A stretch of 64,000 bases of DNA, taken from Scenedesmus sp. PABB004. Taxonomy: Eukaryota. Every line of letters begins with the position of its first letter. Position 1 is the first letter of the stretch. The notes below the pieces were generated by a model. The model was not told the DNA's origin. It saw nothing but the letters and a program-made list of their open reading frames with translations, and did not search any database. Where the stretch lies: NCBI GenBank assembly GCA_014905635.1, contig JABVCE010000038.1:124001-188000 (forward strand), written 5' to 3'. A program made the translations under genes and the position numbers. Shown here piece by piece: positions 6,049 through 23,062 of the stretch.

Positions 6049-9000
6049 TCACGCCCCTGCCGGCCGCGCAGGCTGCGGCGGCGCCGCCGCCGCCGCCCCG
6101 GCCGCGGCGCGGCCGGCGTCCGCGTCCGAGCCGGCCGCCGCGCGGCGCGCCCGGGCGCGCGCGAGCGCGGCCGCGTCGGCGGGGCTGCCCCAGCGCGGCA
6201 GCGGGTGCGCCTCGGTGTTGAAGACCCACGAGTCCAGCGGCAGGACGGACGGGTCGTCCTCAAAGAGAAGGTAGAAGTATTTGAGTGTCTCGGCGACCCA
6301 GAACGACTCCATCTTGGGCGAGAGCGGCGGCGGGACCTGGCGGGCGCGGGCGCGGCGGCGGCGGCGGCCTGCTCGGGGCGCGCGCCTCGTGCCGCGCGCC
6401 GCGCGGGCGCACCCTGCGCCCGTCGTGCGGGAGAGGCGCGGCGCGGCGCGGCGCGGTTGCGCGCCCTGCCGCCGCACCAGTGTGACGTCCTTCACGCTCG
6501 CGTAGCCGCCGCCCGGGACGCGCGCGTGGCGCTCAAACGCGCGGAACATCGCCCACCCCCACTCGCGGTACAGGTCGTCGCCGGTCGCGCGCCAGAGGTA
6601 AAAGAGCGTCTCGACCGCCTCGGGGCGCAGGAAGTCCTCGCGGCTGAGCGCGTCCCACGCGGCGGCCGGCGCCGGCGGCGGCAGCCCCCGGGCGCGTCCG
6701 CGTGCGCGGACGAGGGCGGCGACGGGGACGCGGCGGCCGCGGGGGAGCGGCGCGGTGCCGCGGCCGCGGCGCCGCCCGCCGCGGCCGGCGGGCCCGCCAG
6801 CGGCCGCGCCAGCAGGCGGCGGCTGTCGGCGACGGCGGCGCCCGCACGCACGCCCGGCCCGCGCCCGGCGCGGCGGCGGCGGGCCGCCAGGCGCCGGAGC
6901 GGCCCAACGCGAGCCAGCCGGGCGCCGCCCCGGCGGGCCGCTGCGCCGCCGGCAGCAGGCTGCTGCCGCCGGCGTCGGGCGCCGCCGCCAGCCGCCGCCG
7001 ACCGGGCGCCGCTGTGGCCGCCGGGGCCGCCGGCGACGCCACGTGTGCGACGTCATGCTGGCGCGGCCGCGCGGCACGGCGCGCGCGCCCCACCGCTGGC
7101 GAGCGCCCGGCCGCGGCGGCGGCCGGCGCCGGCGCCGGCGCCGGCGCCGGCGGCAGCGGCGCGCTTGCGGGCAGGTTGCCGCCGGCGGCGGCGCGGAAGT
7201 GCACGCTGTCCGGCGCAAGGCCGCTGGGTGACTCGTGGTACAATTCGTAGCAGGCGCGCCCGATGCGCGCCCCGAGCGTCGCGTCGTCGAGCTCGCCGGC
7301 CGTGGCGTTGGTCGTCACGCCCGCGAGCTGGCCCAGCACGAGCATGCCGCCGGCAAAGCAGGTGAGGTGCTCGAAGCGGTCGTTGGGCGGCGACACCTGG
7401 CGGCGGCGGCGGCGGCAGCGCGGGCGGTGAGGCGGCGGCAGGGCGGGCAGGGCGGCCGGCGAGGCGGCGGCGCGGCCGGGTGTTTGCACGCGGCCGCGCG
7501 TCCCCCGAGGCAGCAGCAGTGCGCCGGGCGGGGCGGGGCCCTCGCGAGGCGGGCTCACCGCGCCCGTCGCTTTGTTGACGGCCGCCTCTGTCACGAAGCT
7601 CATCGCCACGCCGCCGCCGTCGGTGACGTGGCGCAGCAGGTGCTTGCGCACGCCGGCCATCGCGCGGAGGTAGAGCGCCAGCGGGACCTGCCGCACGGCG
7701 CGAGCAGCGCGCAGCCGGGGCGGCCGCGGCTCGCCGTCTTGGCCCACGCCGGCGCTGCGCCGCGCGTGCTGCGCGTGCTGCACGTGCTGTGCGTGCTGCG
7801 CGTTCTGCGCGTGCTGCGCACCTCCTGCGTGCCGTCGGAGAGGAGCCACTGCTTGAGCATGTACTCGTACATGGAGTCGGCGGCGCTGCCGAGGCTGAGC
7901 TTTGGGTCGGAGCAGGCGCCGTCAGCGGTGGAGAGGCCGACGCAGTAGAGGCCGTCGAAGTCGGGCTGCGACAGCAGCACGTACCAGAAGCGGCTGCCCG
8001 CATCAAAGAGGTCGGCCCGGCCGAGGAGGCGGCCGATGGTCGTGAACTCCAAGCTCGCCGTGCCCGCCTCGGCGACGTTGGTCTTGGCGTCGGGCAGCTT
8101 GGCGCTGACGCGGCGGACGCCGGCGGCGCGGCGCGCGGCGCGGGGTGAGCGAGCGGGGTGAGCGGGCGGGGCCGCGCGCCCGGCGCTGGCCCACCTGGCG
8201 GCGCGGCCGGCGGCGCCCTGCAGCTCCACGAACGCCGCTGGGATGCCGCTGGTCGTGTTGAACCCGACCGACAGCCTGCGGTCGCGCGCGGGCGCTCGGC
8301 GCCACTCAGCCGCCGCGCCGAGCGCCCGCGCCGCGCTCCCGCGCCGCGCGGGAGCGCGGCGCGGGCAGTGGCAGCCCCGCGCCGCGCGCCGCTGCGGGCG
8401 CACCTGTCTGCTAGCTGCGTGGCCTTGTGTAGGTAGAGGTCGTCGCCGCCTGAGAGGAAGTACGCGGAGAGCAGGCCGCCGAGGATGCGGATGGTGACCT
8501 CAAAGAACTGCACCTGCGCGGCGCGTGGTGAGGCGCAGTGACGCAGTGTGGTAGCGCGGCGGCTGCGTGGGCACGGCGGCGCAGGGCGCCGGGGGCGCAG
8601 CGCGGGGCGTCGGGGCGTCGAGGCGCGCCTTTGCGCCGTCCTTGAACTCCAGGTGGTTGGCCACCCAGTGCCGCGCCTCCTGGTACTCCTCCTGCCAGCG
8701 GCGCAGCACGGCGTCGTCATCAGCGCAGCACCTCCACAGCCGCCGCGCCATCGGCTTACGCTGCCGCGCGCCACGCCGCGCCGCGCCGCCGCGCCGCGCG
8801 TCGCGCCTGCAGGCCGGCGAGCAGCAGCGTGTCGAGGGAGTCGACGATGGTCAGCCCCAGGTTGAACCAGGCCTTGGGCCGCTTGCCGAGCGCGTCGACC
8901 TCGTCGTGCCCCCACGCATCCTTCCTGCAAACGGCGGCGGCGCGGTCGGGCGGCGCGGGCCAGGCGCGGGGCCGGCCGCACGGCGCACGGCGGAGCACGC

Positions 9001-9550
9001 CGCGGCGACGCGCGGCGCACCGGTAGCCCTCCCAGCTCCACGCGATGGCAGCGCGCACGCGGGCCTGCCGCTGCGCCGCGTCCACGACGCAGCCGAGGCC
9101 ATCGGGACCGCAGCGGTGGTCGCCGTCGCAGATGCCGGAGCGCGCGCAGCGCGGCGAGGCGTCGTGGTCCGGCAGGGAATAGTACCCTCGCAGCGACGCG
9201 AGCGGGTGCGCCACCGCCGCCGGCGCCGGCGCCGGCGGCGCAGGGCGGGCGGCGGCCGCGCCGCGCGGCGCCGCCGCGGCCGCCAGCGACGGCAGCGGCG
9301 ACAGCTGCCGCCGGTGCGCCAGCGAGAGGTTGAGGCCGCCCGCGACGAGCGCCGCCGCCGCGAGGGCCGCCGCGAGCAGGCTCAGCAGGCCCGCGAGCGC
9401 GGCGCGCTGCCACGCGCGCGGGGTGCGCCCGCCGCCAGAGCCCGAGAAGCTCCGGCTGCGCGGCAGGCCCGGCGCGCGGTCGAGCCTGCTGCCCAGCAGC
9501 GGCGTCTTCAGCATCAGCGCCGCGGGGCCGCCGGGGGCGCGCAGCTCCAT
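6049..9550 (-). CDS. Class I alpha-1,2-mannosidase (GH47), type II membrane protein, multi-exon
   Basis: N-terminal TM segment (ALAGLLSLLAAALAAAALV). GH47 motifs AWGHDEV, LTIVDSLDTL, FFEVTIRILGGLLSAY, AADSMYEYMLKQW, EHLTCFAGGM, LRPEAVETLFYLWRAT, MESFWVAETLKYFYL and VFNTEAHP. Confidence 0.93.
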
Positions 9551-10139
9551 CACGGCGCCCGCCGGCAGGCGTGGCGCTGCTGCTCGCGCGACGCGGCCCC
9601 GCCCTCGTCCCTCCGCGTCGCTCGAGCTAAGCTTTCATGCCTCAGTCAGTCTGATATTGCTCGGCGGGAATCTGGACGCCACTGGGCCCGCCTGCGCGGC
9701 GGGGCGTCGCGCCGAACGGCGGGCCGGCCGCTGCTGATCGCAGGCGGCACGTGGACGCTTGCCCGCCGCGCGCGGGATCGGGTGCCAGGTCAAGGGAGGT
9801 GCGGGACGTGCGAGTGGGCAGCGTGCGCGGTCTGCCGGCACGGTTCGCAGAAATGGCGGGAAGCAGCGCCGCGCAGTCTGCGCTCACGACGGCAGGCCGG
9901 GCTGCAGCTAAATGCGAGCGTCTGATCGCGGGCGAGACGACGGACGCCGGAAGTTGCACGCCCGCCGCCGCGCGATCGCGGCGCGGGACCCCATCGGCGC
10001 CGCCGCACGCGGAGAACCCCCACGCCGCCGCGCCACCCCCCCCCCCCCTCGCCGAATCGCCCCGCCCAGCAATGAAACACCCCCCGCCGCCCCAGCGATG
10101 AATGAGCGCGAGCACAGAGAACGCGGCCGGGTCCAGGCC

Positions 10140-13100
10140 TCACGCCACGCGGGTGAGCTGGCCCTCCTGCAGCGAGTAGACCTTGGCTCCCGGCAGCCCG
10201 CCCGCGACCGCCTCGCGCGCCGCGGCGGCGGCGATGACCGTCACGCCGCTCGCGCTCAGCTCGGCGAGCACCGCGTCGAGGCGCTCCTGGCCCATCGCGG
10301 CGGCAAACTGGTCGGCGTCGTCCAGCAGCAGCAGGCGCGGCGCGCGCACGAGCGCGCGCGCAAAGGTGAGCTGCAGCAGCAGCGGCCAGGGCAGCACGGT
10401 GCCGGAGCCGTCGCCGACGAGCGTGCGGTAGCCCTCCTGCGGAGCAGAGCAGTGCGGCGCGGTGGGTGAGCGGCGAGTGAGCGGCGAGAGAGCAGTGGCG
10501 GCGCCCCCGCGCGCCGGGCCCGTGGCGCTCACCGGCAGGGACATGATCGCGCCGTGCGCGCCGACCCGCTCGCAAGCCGCGCGCACGTCGGCGCAGCGCA
10601 CGACGCCGTGCGTCGCGCACGCGACGTTGTCCTCCACCGTCGTCCTGCGAGCGCGCGGGCGCGCGGCGGGGTTGGCGTTGTCGACCAGGCAGGGTTCGGG
10701 TCAGGTTTGATGGCCAGGAGGCACGACGCGGCGGCGGCGCAGGCCCGTGGGGCGCTCGGTCGCGCCGCGCTGCCGCCGCGCTCCAACAACAAAAGCAAAC
10801 AGCACATCAGCGCACCTGAACAGGCCGGCCGAGCTGACGGAGACCATGGCCATCGGCTCCCGCGCCGCCGCCTGGTCGTCCTTCAGGAAGCTGAACTGCG
10901 CCCACACCCAGCCCGGGCCGCCCGGAGTGACGCTGTAGCCCAGGCTCGCGCCCGGGCCGTGCGTCGGCGGCGACCGCGCGCCGCTGCTACCATCGAGGAA
11001 GACCGCACCCGCGGGCGCGGCGCCGGCGCCGGCGCCGTCGAGCGCGGGCGGCGCGTAGCCGCCGGCGCCGCCGGGCGGCGTCGCGGGCGGCAGCGCAGAG
11101 TCGGGCAGCTGGAACGCGAGATAGCCCTTGTACGGGATGTGGCGCAGCAGCACGAGCTGCAGCAGGCTCGACTTGCCGCCGCCGGGCGGGCCTACGCGGC
11201 GCGGCGCGGCGCGGCCGGCCGGCGGTGGGCGGTCAATTGCGCCCGCCGCAGGCGCGCCCGGCGGCGGCGGCGGCGCGGCGGCGGCCCTGCAGCAAGGCGA
11301 GCAGCCCCCCGGCGGCGCGCCGCACCGACGATCACGGCCGCCTCGCCGGCGAGGATTTCGAGGCTCGCGTCCGCGAGCACCAGGCGGTCCGTCTTGCTGC
11401 GCAGCGTGAGGTGCACGCCCTCGAGGCGCACGCCGCCGAGCATTGCGGTAAAGCGCGGTCGGTGCTCCGGCGGCAGGCGCACGACGCGCATCTGCGGCGG
11501 CGCGCGGCGCGGCGTGGGCGTGGGCGTGGGCGGCCGGCCCGCCGGCCGGCGCACGGGCCCGCCTGACCTCGCCGCTGCGGCCGCCCCCCGGGCCTCCCCC
11601 GCGCACCTTGGGCTTGGGCTGCCACCAGCGGCGCCGCGCCTCGGCCGCCCAGCGGCCGAGCAGCGGCTGGTCCAGCCCGCTCGCGCCGGCCTTGGCCGCC
11701 GCGCGCGCGGCCCCGCCCTCCCCGGCGCCGCCGCCGCCGCCCTCCTCCTCCTCCTCCACCACCTGGCGGCGCCGGCGGGCGCAGCAGCACGTCAGGAGGC
11801 GCGCCGCCGCACCAGCGCGCGCGCCGCACGCGCACTCAACAACGCCACGGCGCGGCGCGGCCGCCGCCGCCGCCGGCGTGCCCGGTGGGGCGGCGCCGCC
11901 CGCACCGGGATCTCCTCCTGGCCGAGGCTCTGCGCCGCGTCCCTGAACACGCCGCGGTCGTGCAGCTCCACCACGCGCTCGAGCGACCCGACGCTGGCCA
12001 TGATGCGGGCGTACGCGTCGCTGCGCGGCGGGCGGTTCAGGCGGCGGGCGGTTCAGGCGGCGGGCGGTTCAGGCAGCGGGCGGTTCAGGCGGCGGGCGGT
12101 TCAGGGGGGTGGGCGGGCGGGCGGGCGGGCGGCGCGCGTGCGCGCGGGAGCGGCGGCGATGCGCCGCCGTGCGCGCCTGGCCTGCTTGATGCCGCGCTGC
12201 ATCCAGGCGACGTAGCGGAGCATCATGAACAGCGTGCCTGTGGGGCGTTAGTTTGGTGTTGTTTGGGCGTCAGCTTGGGATTTGAGGTCGGGCATAAGCT
12301 TGGCCGTCCTCGCGCTGTCCCAGAGCGCTGCGCGCGCCGCCGCTGTGCGCGCCACGCGGCGCGCGTCCCTCACCCACGGTCGTGAGGTCTGCAAAAAGCG
12401 CCTTGCCGCCAAACCAGAGCATCGCGGTGCGCACGCCCGCGCTCAGCGCAAACGTGTAGGCCGCGTGCGCGACGAGCAGGGCGTTGAGGTTGAACGTGTT
12501 CCTGCGCGCGAGGCGGGGCACGGCACGCGGCAGCGGCGTCGGGGCGGACGCGGCGCCTGCACCCGGGGGCCCCCGCGCCCCCGGCTGCGCCTGATGCTGG
12601 CAGCAGTGTGCTGGGCGGCCCGGCGGGCGCCCCAGACCCTCCTCAACCACCCAAACCCTTTGCTCATATTCTAAATCAAAACAACAATAGCAATAACAAT
12701 AACGATAACAACACACCTGAAGTAGTCGCGCGCGAAGCAGCGATAGTCGGTCAGCAGCCGGTCCTCCAGCCCGAGCGCGCCGACGGCGTCCATCTTGCTG
12801 AACACATCGAGCGAGAAGCCAAACATGCGCCCCAGGCTCTGCCGCACGCGCAGGTTGAGCGCGCGCGCCGCGAGGCCTGCGGGGAGGTGGCGGCGGCGCG
12901 GGGCGGCGCGTCGGACGCGGCGGCGGCGGGCTTCGGCGCGCGCTGCGGCAAAGAGAGCACCGTGCGCGCATGTGCTGCGTGCTGCGCGCGCGCACCCGTG
13001 GCAAAGCCCTCCACGGCGCTGAAGGTGAGGCCGACGACGAGGGCGAGCCCGAGCAGCGGCGCCTGCAGCCACAGCGGGCCGAGCGTGACGGCCAGGCACG

Positions 13101-16100
13101 CGGCCGCGCCGAGCACGAGCGCCGTGCCCTCGATCAGCTGCGCGGCGGGCGGCGCGTCCGCGTCGGCGGCGGCGGGCACGTGAGCGCGGCGGGCGGCGCG
13201 CGCCGCAACAAGGTGCTGGTGCGCGGCGCGCAGGCCGGGCCGGCGGCGCAGCGCCGCCCGCGCCTGGTAGGTGGTGGACGTGAACATCGAGCGCAGCGTG
13301 AGCGAGTCGCCGGACGTGCGCGCCATGAGCTCGCCCGCGGGCAGCCTGCCCGACGCACGCAGCGGCGGCGGCGGCGGCGGAGGGTCAGCCGGGCAGCTCG
13401 CCCGAGCCCGCGGGCGGCTCTGCCGGCGCGGGCGCCGCCGCCCTGCGGGGCGAGCGCGGCGCGGCGGGACACCGCGCCGGCGGCGCGCACCGCGTGAAGA
13501 AAGTGAGCTCTTGGCCCAGGATGTGGTCGAAGAAGCTAGCGAAGAGCTGCCGCATCGTGCGCCGCGCAAAGACCTCGAGCGTGATGCGCCCCCTGCGCGG
13601 GCCCAGGGCCCAGGGCGGGCCCAGGGTTTAGGGTGCGGCGGAGCGGCTGTGCATCAGCGGCCCTGCCCTCGGGGCACGGGCCGGGCCTCGCAAAGCGCGC
13701 GCCGCGCCGCGCCGCGCCGCGCCGCGCCACCCGTGCGCACCCGAGCGAGAGCAGCACGTCGGCGGCGGTCAGCGCGATCGCGAGCCCCAGGTTCCAGCGG
13801 AACACGCTGAGCTCCAGGGCATTGAAAGCGTCAAAGATGGCCCCCTCCACGCGGGGCACGGCGAGGCGGAAGACCAGCCCCAGCAGCAGCAGGCCGTACG
13901 CGCCCGCGAGCAGCGGCAGGTTGAGCAGCCCCACGCCGAGCGCAAAGTGCAGCAGGCGCGAGATCGGCGGGCGCTGGCGGCTCGGGCGCTCGTCGTCGTG
14001 GATGAGCTCCGTGTACTCGCGCTCCGCGTCCTGCGAGGAAGACGGGGAGGCGGGGAGGCGGGAGCGTGCATTTGAATCGCGCGCCGACAGCTGCGCGCGC
14101 ACGCGCCGCGCGGGGGGCTCGTCCGTGGCTGGGCGGCGCCGGCGGGCGGGCGCGTGCGCTGTGCCGCACCTGCGCCGGGCCGCTGGAGGCGTCCAGGACC
14201 TGGTAAAAGGTGCCCAGGCTGCTGTCCGCGGGCTCCGTCCAGCGCCCGACCGCGCTGTGGCGCAGCCACATGCTGTCGTCCGCGGGGCTCACGCCCGTGG
14301 CGCCGGGGCTGTCGACGGCGTCGGGGAGCGGGAACGCCGCGACGTCGCCGCCGCGCCGCGGGGGCGCCTTTGCGCCGGCCGCCGCGGCAGAGCTGCCGGC
14401 GCGCGCGGCCGCCGCCGCCGGCGCCTTGGCGGGCGAGGGGCTGGCCGAGCGGCTCGCGGGGCCGCCCGCGTCGGGCGTGGCAGCGCCGCTGCCCACGGCG
14501 CCGCGGAACGCCTTGTTGCTGCGCTCGGAGGCGAGGCGCTTGAGGCTGCCCAGAGTGTCCAGGTAGCGCCGCCGGCCCTGCGTGACAGGCGGTGCCAAGT
14601 TGAGCTGAGCGGCGGGCGGCGGACGGGCCCGCGGCCGCACAGCGGGAGGCGCCACCGGGGCGGCCCGGCGCGGCTCGCGCGCCGCCCCCTGCGCGACCGG
14701 CGAGCGCCCGCGCCGCCGCGCCTGCGCCGCGCCAGCGTCCGCCGCCTCGTCCGTCGGGGCCTCGGCGCTGAGCATGCGGCTGAGCTCGGGGCTGCTGCTG
14801 ACCCACGGCTCCGCGGGGTTGGTGCCGGAGGGCTTGGGGAAGCTCCGCCGCGCGATGCTCAGCAGCGCGTCCGACCCCGCGCCCGTCACGCTGCGCTGCG
14901 TGACCCACACGCGCTTGCCCGGCGGCGCCTCGCCGGTGAAGCTCGCGCTGAGCGCGTCCAGCGCGCCGCCGGTCTCCGCGTTCAGCCGCCCCGCCAGGTC
15001 AAACGTCGCGCCGGAGGCCATGAACTCCTCGAGCTCCTGCGGCGCGCGTGCGGCGCGTGTGGGTTATACGGGCGGCGCAGAGAGACTGCCCGCCTGCCCC
15101 GCGCGCGCACGGGCGCCGCCCCCTTGCAGGACGGCGGCCTCCACACGCGCCCGCGCCGTGCCCGCTGGGCCGGGCCCGGCCCCGCCGAGCCCCTCTGAGG
15201 CCCCGCAGCCCCAGCCCCGCGCGCCTGGGGCATGTGCAGGAGGCCCAGGTCGGCCACGCCCTCATCAGCCGGCATGTACCCGGTGCGGCGGCCGCGCATC
15301 TCGTTGGCAATCAGCTTGGACGCGACCTGCGCGTTTGTGCGTGTGTTTGAGTGTGCGTGTGTTTGTTTGAGTGTGCGTGTGTTTGAGTGTGCGTGTGTGT
15401 GGAGAGGGGTTTCGTGAGTGGGACGGAGGCGAGCCGGGAGCTGGCGCGGCGGCGGGCGTTGAGCCGCTGCAGCGCCGCCGACCCCCCCCTCCCCCCCACA
15501 CACCCCGGGACTCGCCCACCTGCGCCTTCTTGCCGTCCACCCAGCGCTCCACGCCCTCGGTGTCAAGCTCCCCCAGCGTCAGCCGCCCGCCGCCGGCCTG
15601 CACGATTGTGGAGTTGACCTCCTGCGCGCCGCCCGCGTCGCGGCGGCGGCGGCGGCAGGCGGTTGAGCCCCCCGGGGGCGCGCGGCGCGGGCTCGGGGGC
15701 CGGGGCTGAGAGGTCAGCCGCGCGGCCACACCGCGGGCGCACGGAGCGCGCCGCGCCAGCCCGCCAGCGCTTGCCGCGCCGCGCGCGCCTGGAGGAGCAG
15801 GCCCCAGAGCAGGTTGACGCCGCCCGCGCGCAGCACGTCGCGGCGCGCGAGGAAGCCGACGTCGACGAGGTGGTCCACCGCGGCCTGCAGCTTCACCGCG
15901 TCGTCGTGGAACGCGCGCAGCACCTGCGCGCGCGGGGGCGTGGAGCGTGTGCGTGGTTTCGTGCCTGCGTGTGCGTGTTTGCGCGCGCGCGGACGGCCAC
16001 AGGCGGCGCGCGCGGGCGCGGGGCGCGCCCAGCAGCCTGGCTGCCCGAGTTTCAACGAGTGTTGACACTCGTCATAACACGCGGTTCAAGCCGCGTCTCA

Positions 16101-19100
16101 ACCCTGCCAGGGTTTAGGCAAACCTTGAAGAGCTGGATCTTGTTGAGCTTCTCCCGCCGGTAGTGCGCCCAGGTGCCCGCGTCAAACGCGTAGTCGCGGC
16201 CGTGGCCCTTCATGTAGCGCACGAGGCACCTGGTGGTCAGGGGTTTGAGAGTTGCCAGCCGCCGCGGCGGCGGCGGCGGCGCGTTGTGATTGTGAGATTG
16301 GAGTGCGCAGCCGGCTGCTTACGACCCCCAAACGCGCGCTCGTTGCAGCGGCAGCCAGCGGCGGCAGGTGCCGCGCGAGGGCCCTGCCGCCGGCGGCAGC
16401 GGGGCTTGGGGCCTGGGCGAGCCGCGGCTTAGGTCTTAAGGCCTGAACCCTCCACCCCGCGCACGCGCCTGCAGAGCTGCCCGGGCGAGACGTAGGGCGT
16501 GCCGTTCTCCTCGACCGCCCAGTTGAGGTTGTACTCGCTCTTGAGCGCGTGAACGCACGGACGGATCTGAGGGCACCGATGCGGCGGCGGCGGCGGCGGC
16601 GGCGCGCGGCAGAGGCTCGGGCGGCGGCACGGGCGGCGGCGCGCGCCGCGGTCGAGCGCGGGAGGGGAGGAGAGGAGGAGGGGGAGGAGGAGCGCCCCGG
16701 CGCGCGCTGTGTCGGGCGTCCCCGCCCGGCGCGCGCCGCACCAGCTGGAGCTGCACGTCGCGCAGCGCGTCGCGCGTGTAGTAGAAGACCGCGCGCCCGG
16801 GGGCCTGCTTGAGGATGAGCACCTCGTTCTGGGTGACGTCGCGCGACACAAAGTACTCGCGCAGCCACTCCTGCGGGTTTAGGGTTCAGGGTGTTGCGCG
16901 GGCGGGGTTTTGTGCAGGCGCCGGGTCGGGGTTTAGCAACGGGTCTCAGCAAAGGGGGTGCTGGCGGCGCGGGCGCGGGGTGGGGGCCGGGGCGCGCGCC
17001 CGCCGCGCACGCGGGCGAGCGCGCGAGCGCACGGCGCACGAGCGCGCACAGAGCACAAACGCACACAGCGCGCCGCAGCGCCGCCGCAGCCGCCGCCGCG
17101 CGCCGGCGCCGCGCCTTGCTCATGACCTCCACGTCCTTGGCCTCCAGCACGAGGCCGCCGAGGCGCATGCCGGTCACGAGCTCGCGCGCCGCGCGGCGGT
17201 CGGCGGAGGTGTAGTGTTCAATAAACACGAGCACGTCGACGTCGAACGACCCCGCGGGCTCGGGCGTGCCATAGAGCTCCTTGAGTAGCTTGCGCGCGAT
17301 GCCGCCCTTGATGCCCATGCCTGCGGACGCGGGCGTTTGGTGTTAGTTTAGGTGTTAGCTTGGCGTTGGTTTGGCGTTGGCTCTTGACATTTCGTTCACG
17401 TGCCGTTGACGGTTGATGTTTGTGTCTGTCACGTGCTGGCGCAGCGGCGGCGGCAGCGGCGGCGGCGGCGGCGCGCGGCGGCGGCGCCGCGTGCGTGCGC
17501 GGCCGCAGGTTGCTAGGTGCTGCGCACCCACGGGCAGGTCGTCCACAAACTCGGCGATGTACGGCGCCTTGGCCCACAGCGCCTCGGGGTCGAGCTCCTC
17601 GCACAGCACCTGGCGGCGACGCGGGTCCCAGGCGGCCGAGCGCGCGGCGGCGCGGCGTCGGCGCGCGGCGGCGCGCCGTTCCCGGAGCGCGACGGCGGGC
17701 GCAGCGCGGCGGGCGCAGCGCGGCGCGGCGCGGCGCGCCGCGCACCCGCACGGGCGTGTGCACCAGGTTGTAGTGCACCAGCTGGACCTGCAGGGGCAGC
17801 ACGACGGCAAGGCGGCTCGGCTCCAGCCACACCGAGCGCCCGGGCGCGTCCGCGCGTACGGCGGCCGCGGCGGCGGCACCCGCGCGCGCCAGCGCCGCGC
17901 CTGGCGGGGCACGAAGACCGCGGGCAGGCGGCCCGCCGCCGAGAGCAGGTAATACCCAGCGCCGAGCGCGGCGAGCACCACCGCGACGGCGCCGGCGACG
18001 ATGCCGAGCACGCTCCAGGGGAAGCCCAGGGCTGGGCGGCGGGCGCGGGGCGACGGGCGCGCGGGCGGGCGCGGGCACGCGTGCGGGTGTGGCGCCCGGC
18101 TGCCGGCGGCCGGCGCGCGGTGCGCGGTGCGCGGCGCTGGGGGCCGGCGCGCCCCCCGCCGCCGCCACCGTGCGCCTCCCTCCCCCTTGCGCCGCCGCCG
18201 GCCGCCGCACCCGCGTCGGCGTCGCTGAACTCTGGCAGAAACACGGGCGTCGCGGGGTCGGCGCCGCAAGTGTCCAGCTTGATGTCGGGCTCGATCCACT
18301 TAGCGTAAGCGCTGCGGCGCGGGCGGGCGGGCGGGCGCGTTTGCGGCGCGGGCGGGCGGGCGCGCTTGCGGCGCAGCGCCGTGATCATCGGCGGCGGCGA
18401 CGGGGAGGCCGGTCGGGCCGCGCCTCGCCGTGAGGCTCTCTAAATTCTCGAGAGCCCCGGGGGTCCCGCCCCCTCTCACCTGCAGTCGTAGGGCTCGTAC
18501 GATTTGCCCAGGCAGAGGCGCACCTCCTGCAGCACCAGGCTGCCCGGCTGCGGCCCGGGGGTACACTTGAGGCCGATGTGGGCGTTGAAGCTGCCACCGA
18601 AGACCGCCGTCAGCGCCGACTGGATCTGAGGGGCAGCGCATGCAGGGCACGGGGGCGGGCAGGCGGGTCGGCGGCGCAGGGCTGGGGGCGCGGCCGCGAG
18701 CAGGCGGCGGCGGCGCGCCCACGGGCCCCCGCCGCCCCCGCCGCCGCCGCCGCACCGCGCCGAGCGTGAGGGGCTTGGTGCTGGAGGGCTGCAGCCCAAA
18801 CGCGCGGAACACGGCCGCGGGGTCTGCGGCCGCCGCGAGGACGGCGGCGCGCGTCAGCCGCGCGCTCACGGCGGGGCGGCTGCGTCTGCGCGTGACAGTC
18901 AGTTTCTGTGTCATTTGTGTTATGTCCCGTGTTAGATGACGCACCCGTGAGCGCGCTGGCATGAAAGACAGTCATGAAGTAGCCGAGCTGGTCCATGTCG
19001 GTGCACGTGCCGTGGCGCAGCCACTCGTGCGCCCAGAACGTCGAGTCGTCTGCGGCGGCCGCGCGCGGCCGCGCGCGGAGCCGTCCGTGAGCGCCCACGC

Positions 19101-19894
19101 CGCGGCCGCGCAGGCCGCGGCGCGCCGGGGACGCGGGCCGGGCGGGCGGCGCCGCACCGCCGGCGTCGAGGCGGAAGTCTCCGGAGCGGAGGTAGAACCG
19201 CAGCGCGGGCTCAAACCCTGACAGCGCGGCCGGCTCAAACGCGGCCTTGGAGCAGTACTCGAGAATCTTTACGTCGTGGCTGCGGCGTCGACACGCAAGC
19301 AGTAACACACGGGGCAGGGCGGGGCGTCGGCGGCGAGCAAGGGCGTGGTTCGCGCGGGCGCCGTGCGGCGAGTCAGGGCGACGGCGGGAGTGACGACGCC
19401 GTCGCAGCGCCGAGTGCGAGCGCCGGCGCGCGAGGCTGCGTCGCGCAGCTGGCCGTGCGCGCCGCGCGGGCTTGGCTGCCGTGCGTGTCGCGTGCCGCCG
19501 CCGCCGCCGCCGCCGCTGCGCACCTGACGGGCCAGAGCCCGTGCGTCCAGAAGCCCGCGTGCGCGAGGTGGCGGATGATCACGTGCCGCGCGCGGCTGTG
19601 CGCGACGGGGGAGACCACGCTGGGCGGCCAGAACATCGCGAGCAGCCAAAAGTCAAAGGGCTGGCCCTCCCCGCGCACCGCCGGGGGGCCGGGCTGCGGC
19701 GCGCCGGCCGCGCGCGCGACCGCCGGGCCCGGCGCCGCCGCCGCCGCGAGCGGCGCCGGCGGCAGCTGGCGGTCGTAGTCGTCCGGGAGTCCTACGTAGC
19801 CGCCCAGCGGCTGGGGCGGCCAGGCCAGGCCCGCCCGCGCCGCCGGCAGCAGCAGCAGCAGCGCCGTCGCTGCCGCGAGCCCGCGCGGCGCCAT
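10140..19894 (-). CDS. Multidomain membrane protein: signal peptide + RNase T2 + TM + class II nucleotidyltransferase-like domain + ABCB-type transporter half (TMD + degenerate NBD), ~1660 aa
   Basis: Exons traced by hand (5'->3' on minus): 19894-19524, 19279-19158, 19049-18945, 18823-18756, 18625-18480, 18311-18211, 18031-17901, 17787-17746, 17609-17528, 17320-17115, 16870-16742, 16566-16469, 16229-16124, 15923-15789, 15621-15520, 15326-15225, 15036-14722, 14604-14170, 14030-13741, 13592-13491, 13345-13264, 13137-12996, 12876-12717, 12501-12374, 12237-12177, 12020-11906, 11762-11607, 11491-11326, 11191-10816, 10644-10533, 10436-10140. All junctions are GT-AG or GC-AG, phases are consistent, the total is 4983 nt and there is no internal stop. 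Motifs: FWTHGLWP and FWAHEWLRHGTC (RNase T2); GGIARK..FDVDV and RDVTQN (NTase); ILGQELTFF, GELMART.GD, GPPGGGKSS and LPEGYRTLVG (ABC). Confidence 0.8.
12025..12105. repeat. Intronic tandem repeat, 16-nt unit (GCGGCGGGCGGTTCAG) x5
   Basis: TTCAG recurs at 12036, 12052, 12068, 12084 and 12100 (period 16). The array lies in the intron just upstream of the acceptor at 12021-12022 (minus strand). Confidence 0.9.
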
Positions 19895-20322
19895 CCGGGC
19901 GCCGGGATCGCTGGCCGTCCGGCTAGGCAGCTGTGGCTGCGCGCTGCATCCGGGTGCGCGGGCGCCGGCTGATCGGGCGGGCACGTGGGCGGGGGCGGTG
20001 GCGGGGTGACCGGGGTGCTGCTGCCGCGCGCGGGCGGGGGGCGATAATCGCGCCTGGCGCTATCCGAGAGTGCTGTGTGCGCCCGCACGGCGGGCGGAGC
20101 GCGCTGCGGGCGGCCAGGGCTTTTCGCTGTCGAGGCGCAAAGTCGAGGTCCCAGCGCGAGCCTCACCGCGCGGCCGGAAGCTGCCCCCGCTCGCTGAACG
20201 CCTCGCGGGCGATGCGCGCGACCAGCTCACGGCGCGTAATTGGTTACGCGCCGACGTCACCGAGCCGCCGCTGCTGCAGCGCCGCGTGGCCGTCCCAGAC
20301 GCCTTTCTTCTTCGTGCGCCGG

Positions 20323-23062
20323 TCAGTCGTCGAATCGGTAGCCCATGCTGCTCAGAGCCGTCTGCGCCGCGCCCTGCCACACGACCGCCTGCGGGGGCGC
20401 CGGCGGGCGGCCGTCGGCGCACGGTGCACGTGCGAGGCCTGGCGGCCTTGCGCCGGCGTGGCCTCGCCAAGCTGCGCTGCGCGCCCACCTGGGTGAACTC
20501 CTCCTCGCCCATGCCCACGCGCATCGGCAGCTTGCCGCGCCGGAACACCACCACGCCTTGCGGCATCGACGCGCCCAGCGCGGCCGCGTCGCCGCCGGCC
20601 GCGGCGAGCTGGCGCTCGTAGCTCGCGCTGCGCGGCGGCGGGCGCACGCGCGCGGCGGCGGTGAGCGCGCGGCCGCCGCCACGCGCGCGGCGGCGCTGCA
20701 GCCGCGCGCGCCGCCGCGGCCTCACCGTATCTCCGACTCGATGACGGCGCTCTGCATCGCGCCCATGCTCAGCCCGCCCGGGTCCATGCCGGGCCAGCGC
20801 GCCATCATCGCGAGGCAGGCCATGCAGTCGTGCCGGTCCTCAAACGTGACCACGCGCACGTCGCGCGCGCCGGGCGTGAGCGAGAGGTCGACCTGCAGGA
20901 AGCCAACGCTGCCGTCGGGCTGCCTGCGCGGCGGGCGCAGCGTCGCGGCGGCGGCGCGGCGGCGGCGTCACGGCACGTCGCGGCGCACGCGAGCAGGGCC
21001 AGCGCGCGCGCGCGCGCGCGGCGCGGCGGCGGCGCCTCCGCCCCGCCCTCACCGCACGCTGGGCAGGTACAGCGCCTGGTAGCGCTCGCGCCACCACGCC
21101 GCCGCCTGCCCGCCGGCGGGCCCCGCGCCGCGCTCGGCGCCGTCGCCGTGTTCGCCGCCCTCGCCGCCCTCGCCGCCCATGGCCATCGCCGCGGCGCGCA
21201 TCGCCTCCTTAACGATGGCCTGCCGCTCCTCCGGCGCGCGCTGCGCCTTCTTGGGCCGCGGCACGCCCAGCTTGCGGCTGAGGATCGTCGCGCCGTCGTC
21301 GGTGACCGTCGGCCCGCCCGGCTCCGGCTCCTCCTCCTCGCGCGCGCGCTGCGCCGCGCGCGGCGGCGGCGGCGCCGCTGCGGCGGCGGCGCTGGGCGCG
21401 CCGCCGCCGGCACGCGGCGGCGCGGCCGGCGGCGGCCGCACAGCGTCGCTCAGCAGCGAGGTGTTTGCGTCCTTGATGCGCCGGTTTGCGCCCCACGCGC
21501 CCCAGGGCCGGCCGCCACTGCCGCCGCTGCTGCTGCTGCTGCCGCTGCTGCCGCTGCTGCTGCTAGGTGCCCCAGCTGCAGGTGCTGCGCCGCCGCCACC
21601 GCCGCTGCTGCTGCTGCTGCCGCTGCCGCTGCCGCCGCCGCTACTGATGGGCGCCACCTCCGCCAGGACCACTGGCGGCGACCAGCCCAGGCCGCCCGTG
21701 GCCGCCTGCGCGCTCGCAGCTGGCGCGGCCGCCGCCGGCGCCCCCGGCGCCTTCGGCCCGCCGCCCCCCGCGCGCTGCAGCTGCTCCTGCACGCTTGCGA
21801 TGCCCTGCAGCAGCTCCTGCAACTGCCCGCCCTCCGCGCCGCCAGCCGCCTGCTGCTGCTGCAACAGCGCGTCCGCCTGCGCCTGCAGCGCCGCCAGCTG
21901 CGACTGCATGCCCGCCAGCGTGCTCGCCGGCGGCGGCGGCGTCGCGCCGCCGGGGCGGCGCCGCCCGCTGCCGCTGCGACCGCCGGCCGGGGCCCCGCCG
22001 CCGCCGCCGGCGCCGGCGACGCCGCCAGCCTGCGCCGCCTTGCCGCCGGCCTGCGCCGCCTTGCCGCCAGCGAAGAACTTTGCCGCGACGGCGTCGGCCA
22101 GCACCTCGCCGTCCAGCTCGATGCCGCCCGCCGCGGCGGCGGCCGCGAGCGCGGTCGGCGACGGCGCGGCGGCGCCGGGCTCGCCCGTGATGCGCGCGTA
22201 CGCCGCCTCCAGCCCCGGCGCGTCCAGCGCCGGCGTGCGGCGCTTCGCCTCGTAGTACTGCGCCAGCTCGTCCGCTGGGCTGGCCGCGCCGCCGTCCGCG
22301 TCGGGCGCGAGCGGCTCGGCGGCTGCGCCGTCCGCGGCGGTGGGCGCGAGCAGCTCTGCGTCCGCGGCCGCGCCGTCTGCGGCGGTGGGCGCGAGCGGCT
22401 CGGCGGCCGCGGTGGGAGCGGCAGGCTCGAGGCCAGCCGCTGCTGACTCGTCCGCCGCCGGCTCGTCCGCCGCCGGCTTCTCTGCGCCACTCGCGCCGTC
22501 CGTGGCGCCCGGCGCCGGCTGCGGCGGCCGCACCGGCAGCGCTGCCGCGCCGGCGGCCAGCACGTCCTGCAGCGCGCTCGCCGCCGACGCGCCCACCGCC
22601 TGCGCGGCCAGCCGGTCTGCCGCTTCGCCGCTGCCAAAGTCAAACAGCGGCAGCTCGGTCGTCACCGGTGTGAAGCCGCCGCCGGCGGCGGCCTCACTGC
22701 TGCTCGCTGCCCCCTGCTGCTCCTGCTGCTGCTGCGCCTGCGCCTGCGCCTGCTGCGCCGCGCCTGCAGCCGCCGCCGCGGCGCCGAGCTGCGCCGCCAG
22801 CAGCGCCTCGAGCGCCGGCCCGGTGGTCGCGGCGCCGCGGTCGAGCCGCCCCCGCGGGAGCACCTCCAGCGCGACGCCCTGCACTGAGGCGAGGTCCTCG
22901 ACATACCACGGCTTGCCGCTCGCCACCGTGCCGCGGAAGAGCCCCGCCGCCTCGTCGCCCGGCCGGCCGGCGGCGGCTGCCGCGGCCGCAAAGCTCGCGG
23001 CGAGCACGCCGCACGCGTGCTCCGCGTCGCCCCGCGACTCGAACGCCACGAGCGTGAGCCGC

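Follow-up and report, generated by a model that had tools for sequence, protein, structure and literature searches.

Ribonucleases (RNases) of the T2 family such as Arabidopsis RNS2, yeast Rny1 and human RNASET2 are small and soluble enzymes of the vacuole or the lysosome. The half-transporters TAP1/TAP2 and TAPL (ABCB9), which belong to the ABCB type of ATP-binding cassette (ABC) proteins, move peptides into the endoplasmic reticulum or the lysosome. The class II nucleotidyltransferases (NTases), among them the CCA-adding enzymes (3h39 and 1miv in PDB), the A-adding enzyme (3wfr), poly(A) polymerase I (3aqm) and TENT5/FAM46 (6w38), have a head-and-neck fold in common, and SIDT2 and LAMP2C are factors of RNautophagy, the direct uptake of cytosolic RNA into the lysosome for RNase T2-type degradation. 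Here we analysed a 64,000-nucleotide stretch of Scenedesmus sp. PABB004 (contig JABVCE010000038.1, positions 124,001 to 188,000; hereafter the window, with positions counted from its first letter), in which the minus strand from 19894 to 10140 appears to encode relatives of the first three of these groups in one product, in the order signal peptide, RNase T2 domain, one transmembrane (TM) helix, class II NTase-like domain, low-complexity linker, ABC transmembrane domain (TMD) and nucleotide-binding domain (NBD). The reading we prefer, to which we give a probability of about 55%, is that of one gene for one membrane protein which would be embedded in the membrane of an organelle, lysosome-related or vacuolar, and take part in nucleic-acid turnover across that membrane, the organelle location and the turnover role being what we infer.

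The coding region comprises 30 exons, from an ATG at 19894 to a stop at 10140-10142, and in the coordinate-based spliced model its coding sequence of 5100 nucleotides (nt) consists of 1699 codons and a single terminal stop, with no internal stop. The exons were anchored by tblastn of three full-length relatives (P0001, P0002 and P0003) after three-frame reading of the minus strand, and at each junction a GT or GC donor and an AG acceptor were picked for an open frame and the best match to P0001. All modules of the three relatives are collinear with the locus, from 19657 down to 10155. The window model is 58.9% identical to P0001 (1639 amino acids, aa) over 1648 columns (aa 80-1695 against 62-1634) and 43.1% identical to P0002 over 1691 columns, and it aligns with P0003 in two pieces (52.8% and 42.7% identity). 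A chance origin of the open frame is excluded, because the model aligns end to end with P0001, an independent protein from Tetradesmus; an extra in-frame intron beyond the 30-exon model may exist. The 29 introns are 96-244 nt long (median 148), with 22 GT and 7 GC donors and an AG acceptor in all. The GC content of the window is extreme (0.74-0.84 in 2-kb steps), and long spurious open reading frames (ORFs) therefore occur in all six frames; a Pfam search of 12 unspliced stop-to-stop ORFs of the window gave only one sub-threshold RNase T2 match and two spurious matches. Moreover, the codon-position GC periodicity of the minus strand is near-continuous from about 19900 to 10140 and shifts its phase every 100-300 nt, as expected for a gene with many exons.

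The gaps between the modules are of ordinary intron size (96-244 nt) and have splice sites, compared with about 590 nt to the next gene downstream. Furthermore, unbroken ORFs in other organisms, which are independent of any splicing model, cross the equivalent junctions: P0003 (1561 aa on a 5762-nt contig, with RNase T2, middle domain and ABC TMD), P0156 (1408 aa on a 4480-nt contig) and P0160 (1344 aa, L009:4465-8499), of which the last, unlike the other two, was seen directly as an ORF in the DNA of a 20-kb metagenome contig. With in-phase exons, collinear relatives, intron-sized gaps and unbroken ORFs elsewhere, the locus is very probably a single gene. A preliminary description of this DNA had proposed the same, with 31 exons in phase, no stop, no intergenic gap and a product of 1660 aa; the phase, the absence of stops and the absence of intergenic gaps hold in our model, while the exon count becomes 30 and the length 1699 aa. 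The landmarks it named were all found again (the TM helix string, ATG 17318 as Met391, ATG 15021 as Met688, and the exon starts 18311 and 15326); the stretch 18311-17528, given there as one exon, is made of four exons (6-9) in three frames. The features of the gene are as follows.

10140..19894, minus strand: whole coding region, from the spliced model and the collinear tblastn matches of P0001, P0002 and P0003
19823..19894, minus strand: start codon and signal peptide (aa 1-24), with a hydrophobic segment at aa 6-24
18311..19657, minus strand: RNase T2 domain (aa 80-271, encoded by exons 1-5 and the opening codon of exon 6), PF00445
19552-19529 and 19038-19003, minus strand: CAS I and CAS II, the catalytic His motifs of the RNase T2 domain
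18211..18311, minus strand: exon 6, a conserved Cys-containing juxtamembrane extension of the luminal part (tblastn with P0001 aa 255-289, 60% identity)
17955..18011, minus strand: single TM helix (aa 312-330) within exon 7 (18031-17901), Kyte-Doolittle peak 2.43
17788..17900, minus strand: intron 7, GC donor, linking the TM exon to the first NTase-like exon; the junction equals P0001 residue for residue
15028..17784, minus strand: class II NTase-like domain (envelope aa 350-685, encoded by exons 8-16 plus the opening codons of exon 17), from family profile, fold and motifs
17321..17527, minus strand: intron 9, just upstream of Met391 (ATG 17318), inside the NTase-like domain and not a gene boundary
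17309-17292, 17243-17235, 17135-17127 and 16843-16838, minus strand: NTase-like motifs Lys-Gly-Gly..Arg, DxD, DxE and Arg-Asp, respectively
15037..15224, minus strand: intron 16, GC donor, between the last part of the NTase-like domain and the exon of the linker, which holds ATG 15021; flanking residues conserved in P0001, P0003, P0007 and P0012
14170..15027, minus strand: low-complexity linker rich in Ala, Ser, Pro, Gly and Arg (aa 686-971, exon 17), from composition and an open 867-nt exon
12185..13976, minus strand: ABC type-1 (ABCB-like) TMD (about aa 990-1290, exons 18-24), from PF00664 on relatives, PDB matches and hydrophobic segments
10143..11491, minus strand: degenerate NBD (aa 1384-1699), from PF00005 on P0001, the HMMER alignment to P-glycoprotein (P-gp) and the family alignment
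11326 to 11169 and 10406-10314, minus strand: Walker A, across intron 27, and the signature-like and Walker B stretch, both inside the NBD

Some of the introns are unusual. GC donors occur in introns 7, 10, 12, 14, 16, 20 and 24, each with AG before and a GCGCG-like sequence after it, and each of these junctions agrees residue for residue with the Tetradesmus protein; their usual share in eukaryotes is about 1%, far below 7 of 29, and the high share may stem from the extreme GC content. Intron 15 (15335-15445) is a CA-rich, microsatellite-like repeat, and a metagenome contig (X2 record 12) matching both of its flanks has 44 letters there compared with 111 in the window, which suggests that the repeat is length-polymorphic. 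Intron 24 (12021-12176) consists mostly of tandem copies of a GC-rich unit of about 16 nt.

Pfam membership of the RNase T2 module was scored on the ortholog P0001 (PF00445, 92.1 bits, aa 62-254, profile positions 1-188; 92-105 bits among the orthologues), and the window was assigned through its collinear alignment to that region; one unspliced ORF fragment of the window itself reaches 24.6 bits, just below the cut-off of 26. The window model keeps both catalytic His motifs and the Glu of CAS II, and the residue before the second His of CAS II, usually Lys, is Arg; the domain is apparently active. CAS I and CAS II are also described in the supplement of PMC13738206. In family (PF00445), in both motifs and in the signal peptide the module resembles RNS2, Rny1 and RNASET2; the difference is that it is tethered via the TM helix to about 1370 further residues. 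This helix has an equivalent at the same place in P0001, P0003, P0156 and P0160, and past it the next hydrophobic cluster starts only at about aa 997, at the ABC TMD. Because there is a signal peptide, one TM helix and then no hydrophobic cluster before the ABC TMD, the RNase would lie outside or in the lumen, and everything from the middle domain through the NBD in the cytosol. The product, 1699 aa long, is predicted to be a type I membrane protein, and its family is conserved among chlorophytes.

The middle domain is class II NTase-like according to its modelled fold, and its conserved residues point to probable class II chemistry. A profile built from eight bacterial stand-alone proteins matches aa 356-651 of the window model with an E value of 1.6e-72, and the AlphaFold (AF2) model of one stand-alone protein, P0023, made from a 20-sequence alignment, has a pLDDT of 91.3 and a pTM of 0.89. 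The best PDB matches of this model in Foldseek are 3aqm (E. coli poly(A) polymerase I), 3h37 (Thermotoga CCA-adding enzyme) and 3wfr (Aquifex A-adding enzyme). In VIA it aligns with 3h39 (T. maritima CCA-adding enzyme) over 198 residues, with Z 10.9 and a root-mean-square deviation of 3.8, and class II NTases and TENT5/FAM46 alone fill rows 1 to 33 (Z 6.9-10.9), the next row having Z 3.6; the five entries named at the outset share the head-and-neck fold with it at Z 8-10.9 over about 200 residues. In addition, eleven signature positions (Lys-Gly-Gly, Arg, DxD, DxE, Arg-Asp and Glu) are identical, the window included, in 23 of the 27 rows with all eleven columns covered (8 of these 27 being the profile's own seeds), the four deviant rows being P0156, P0012, P0091 and P0090. 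In the window domain Gly-Gly..Arg, DxD, a third acidic pair and Arg-Asp follow one another in the order expected for motifs A and B of the class II NTases, and they may correspond to the catalytic residues of the CCA enzymes; inspection by eye did not reveal the EDxxR motif of base selection. The domain differs from these enzymes in being membrane-tethered and in having no sequence-level match to PF01743 or a PDB chain.

An exhaustive HMMER search with P0007 returned 339 representatives at E ≤1e-3, and 12 of the 25 that were scanned have no Pfam domain at all, several of the 12 being complete proteins of 294-367 aa. The middle domain is a Pfam-orphan branch of the class II NTases with bacterial stand-alone members. 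On bacterial contigs the stand-alone genes lie beside those for SMC and ribosomal protein L10 (L001) or beside those for ClpB, MraW and a PBP (L005), and no conserved neighbour is common to distant loci. Three contigs of metagenome-assembled genomes, L002, L003 and L004, are labelled Shapirobacteria, Gammaproteobacteria and Desulfotomaculum, respectively; at least two of these labels are doubtful, because the NTase-like proteins are 73-85% and the syntenic neighbours 68-92% identical.

The ABC part is of the ABCB kind. PF00664 scores 70.4 bits on P0001 (aa 960-1229), 96.7 on P0002 and 48.9 on P0003, with all of which the window is collinear, and the closest PDB relatives are ABCB1/4/11, ABCB8, TAP1 and ABCB9, the best TMD stretches coming from TAP1 (E 5.7e-23) and ABCB9 (E 1.3e-20). 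The match of PF00005 is weak (33.2 bits on P0001). In the HMMER alignment of P0001 with P-gp there are non-canonical residues at the ABC signature and an Asp at the catalytic Glu. The NBD of the window product, too, is without the ABC signature and the H-loop His and carries Asp instead of the catalytic Glu. Among the 11 aligned family members the signature (LSGGQ) is present in none, the H-loop stretch has its His in one (by eye), and the residue pair that includes the catalytic-Glu position after Walker B is Asp-Asp in eight, Asp-Asn in one, Glu-Asp in one and Asp-Glu only in P0017; the canonical Walker A pattern is found in the window model, at aa 1439-1446, and is absent from the ten other members. 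The decay of the NBD is, to judge by this alignment, old and family-wide, while the NTase signature is strictly kept. TAP1, in which the catalytic Glu is likewise Asp and the H-loop His is missing, is comparable to this extent; the algal family differs from TAP1/TAP2 and TAPL in a large insert behind Walker A and in having lost the ABC signature too, whereby both composite ATP sites would be impaired.

Public orthologous models are OEZ85_014227 of Tetradesmus obliquus (P0001) and CEUSTIGMA_g12124 of Chlamydomonas eustigma (P0002), to which an 'ABC transporter B family member 5' of Tetrabaena socialis (P0004) and N2152v2_010413 of Parachlorella kessleri (P0162) can be added; the architecture is conserved across Chlorophyceae and Trebouxiophyceae. 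Their domain order is that of the window and the locus is collinear, except that the RNase T2 region is partly or wholly missing in the models P0004 and P0162; they are annotated as hypothetical or ABC proteins, with the NTase-like module unannotated. The outer domain is not always the same. In P0156 the RNase T2 is replaced by an Endonuclease I (PF04231, E 1.2e-32), followed by the usual chassis of TM helix, NTase-like domain (E 1e-19 to P0001) and a multi-helix hydrophobic region. P0160, found in a metagenome scan with a 5-sequence alignment, has in order a signal peptide, an outer domain of about 400 aa, a TM helix, the NTase-like domain, PF00664 and the start of PF00005. Its outer domain has no Pfam match and no PDB sequence match, and its nearest ESM-Atlas clusters are of the endonuclease/exonuclease/phosphatase (EEP) type (score 0.92, 173 of 256 features), a lead for an EEP-like domain; a single-sequence AF2 model of it was unusable (pLDDT 34.5). 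The extracytosolic phosphodiesterases on the NTase-ABC chassis thus belong to two unrelated folds at least, and probably to three. That the architecture is conserved in two algal classes and recurs with Endonuclease I, which is solid, and perhaps with an EEP-like domain is a strong hint of a functional unit.

Two further observations concern individual relatives. The ORF of P0160 on L009 stops just past Walker A, and a 424-aa ORF (8514-9788) without a Pfam match begins 15 nt later. The remainder of the NBD may have been lost or frameshifted, or may lie beyond an intron. P0007 (RNase T2, TM helix and NTase) and P0012 (TM helix, NTase and ABC) are 69% identical over the NTase-like domain; the two may represent paralogous genes or incomplete models of the same gene.

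Measured against the preliminary description, the domain order and the self-consistent topology (signal peptide, one TM helix, an ABC TMD starting on the cytosolic side) were borne out, and the search it proposed for the fusion in other chlorophytes found the same architecture in the Tetradesmus, C. eustigma, Tetrabaena and Parachlorella models. Its class II NTase is right by fold (Z 10.9) and by motif signature, while PolyA_pol failed, alone among the four Pfam families it had named, Ribonuclease_T2, ABC_membrane and ABC_tran all being matched on P0001. The degeneracy of the NBD had been missed. The statement that no ABC protein is known with either domain is out of date, and the novelty was overstated: the fusion itself is not unknown, and public databases contain the combination, though solely as entries called hypothetical or 'ABC' proteins. 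Our literature searches found no paper on the three-module architecture, and as far as they go neither the NTase-like module nor its stand-alone relatives in bacteria have been described; the same holds for the decay of the NBD throughout the family, the swapping of nucleases and the mechanism.

As to what such a protein might do, nucleic acid is the common theme, because an RNA or DNA hydrolase would face outside and an RNA 3'-end-type polymerase fold inside. RNase T2 leaves 3'-phosphates, and Endonuclease I and EEP nucleases leave 5'-phosphates. It is therefore unlikely that one specific product of cleavage is passed on to the NTase, since the nuclease is interchangeable and its variants leave different ends; for the same interchangeability a generic degradation fits better than the production of a defined ligand or substrate. 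Since the NBD is degenerate, transport is unlikely to run on the protein's own ATPase. The C. reinhardtii protein Cre03.g160953 is reported in lysosome-related organelles, according to proteomics cited in PMC13738206, and a location in such organelles, if it is the Chlamydomonas counterpart, would follow for our protein, in agreement with the vacuolar and lysosomal RNase T2 enzymes. This apparent counterpart makes the hypothesis directly testable with existing mutant and fractionation tools. On this basis we tentatively propose, as one possible mechanism, an import-and-degrade route resembling RNautophagy, in which the cytosolic NTase domain would engage, and possibly tail, RNA 3' ends, the TAP/TAPL-like TMD would serve as a conduit not powered by its own crippled NBD (it might pair with a competent half-transporter or be driven otherwise), and the luminal nuclease would destroy the arriving RNA. 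The comparison with SIDT2 and LAMP2C is one of working only, these proteins being unrelated to the window family; the proposed outcome is alike, with cytosolic RNA brought into a lysosome-like lumen and degraded there in the RNase T2 manner. It is a still more doubtful idea that the family is an unrecognised membrane machine, built of NTase, ATPase-less ABC conduit and interchangeable luminal nuclease, which moves RNA or a nascent nucleotide polymer across an organelle membrane. If true, it would be a dedicated device for RNA import and degradation (or for polymerisation and extrusion) and the first ABC-fold protein acting on nucleic acid; RNA entry into lysosome-like compartments, and the coupling of its breakdown to the cytosol, are poorly understood outside animals.

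Several results weigh against a single organellar protein for nucleic-acid turnover. PF01743 (PolyA_pol), and indeed any Pfam family, has no match in the NTase-like domain at E ≤1 in P0001-P0008 or at E ≤0.01 in 25 further relatives, no NCBIfam cut-off was reached in nine proteins with the domain, and in the PDB profile search no row up to E 10 was an NTase chain, RNase T2 entries being the sole significant rows and the remaining ones (E ≥0.09) unrelated proteins. The structural match spans only residues 10-273 of the P0023 model, the tRNA-binding body and tail of the CCA enzyme being outside it. Moreover, the NBD is degenerate in all 11 aligned members, and ATP-driven transport by a homodimer is unlikely for this reason; to our knowledge, no ABC exporter carries RNA. 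The homologous-protein search retrieved no C. reinhardtii protein, so Cre03.g160953 is linked to the window gene by description only. The gene models of the other algae may share one prediction artefact, and some members have no nuclease (P0012 and P0162) or apparently end before the ABC part (P0007), which means either that the modules are able to work apart or that these models are incomplete. Finally, a sequencing-run search for the locus gave no RNA run and only two freshwater-metagenome DNA runs (word share 0.08), whose short genomic contigs include introns and are uninformative on splicing, the joints in them having sides of 21-24 letters in low-complexity sequence. Part of this could be read in favour of three adjacent genes of the same strand wrongly merged, namely an anchored RNase T2, an NTase-like protein from ATG 17318 and an ABC half-transporter from ATG 15021: both ATGs sit just behind AG acceptors, no RNA run was found to cover the locus, P0007 (543 aa) stops just past the NTase-like domain, and P0012 and P0162 begin at or near it. 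However, Met391 lies 35-41 residues inside the NTase-like domain, no other Met is found between it and aa 190, and the domain's confidently modelled first strand and helix come from exons 8 and 9, so a transcript from ATG 17318 would behead the domain. With coding frames that offer no stop between the modules, gaps that are intron-sized and bear splice sites, and the same junctions spanned by the three unbroken ORFs of other organisms, a merger of three genes is very improbable. Of the Chlamydomonas poly(A)-signal pentamer, TGTAA, the 64-kb window has two copies, neither of them within 9000-21000, which is uninformative here.

Three other functions can be set against turnover in an organelle. 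The outer nuclease might digest RNA for salvage at the plasma membrane or the vacuole, with the ABC part passing nucleotides or phosphate to the cytosol, where the NTase would use or sense them. Secreted and vacuolar RNase T2 enzymes are indeed the classic enzymes of phosphate starvation and RNA recycling, and nucleases of the Endonuclease I and EEP kinds typically act outside the cytoplasm as well; but the 3'-phosphate products of the first and the 5'-phosphate products of the others would not both be usable by one NTase, NTases use nucleoside triphosphates rather than monophosphates, the export direction of type IV ABCB folds is away from the side of the NBD, and the NBD is degenerate, which makes salvage unlikely. 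The strict conservation of the NTase signature beside a decayed NBD would suit a transmembrane sensor, in which luminal binding or cleavage of foreign RNA or DNA leads, via the TM helix, to a nucleotide second messenger made by the NTase, or to the tagging of host or viral RNA, with the ABC part as a regulatory or oligomerising scaffold. Human RNASET2 acts upstream of the endolysosomal TLR8, and the bacterial stand-alone homologues could be cited as well, because bacterial NTases often serve in conflict systems. Yet those homologues have no conserved neighbour, the structural neighbours are CCA-adding enzymes, poly(A) polymerases and TENT5 and not the cGAS/OAS/CD-NTase class, and a single TM helix followed by a disordered linker of about 290 aa offers no evident coupling path; we regard a sensor as quite unlikely. 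The same linker, which separates the NTase from the TMD, stands against the idea that the NTase makes from cytosolic NTPs a template-independent ribopolymer which is threaded through the ABC-derived pore and trimmed by the luminal nuclease, with nucleotides and phosphate thereby entering an acidocalcisome-like store in a vectorial manner. This would explain both why an active polymerase-type domain lies beside a pore with a decayed ATPase and why any type of nuclease serves, it agrees with the lysosome-related location reported for the Chlamydomonas candidate, and its logic is analogous to that of VTC. The VTC complex is a polyphosphate polymerase-channel; a ribopolymer version is without precedent, and we think it improbable. 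Turnover of nucleic acid at a lysosome-related or vacuolar membrane is hence the function that we prefer.

Both sides of the locus carry further signs of genes on the minus strand. Downstream, at 7053-9634, lies a gene for a glycosyl hydrolase of family 47 (alpha-mannosidase), with PF01532 matches on two exon fragments and a signal-anchor-like start near 9550. Upstream, at 20376-20967, there is a strong third-position GC periodicity with coding-looking ORFs that have no Pfam match, which suggests that a further gene ends near 20300-20400.

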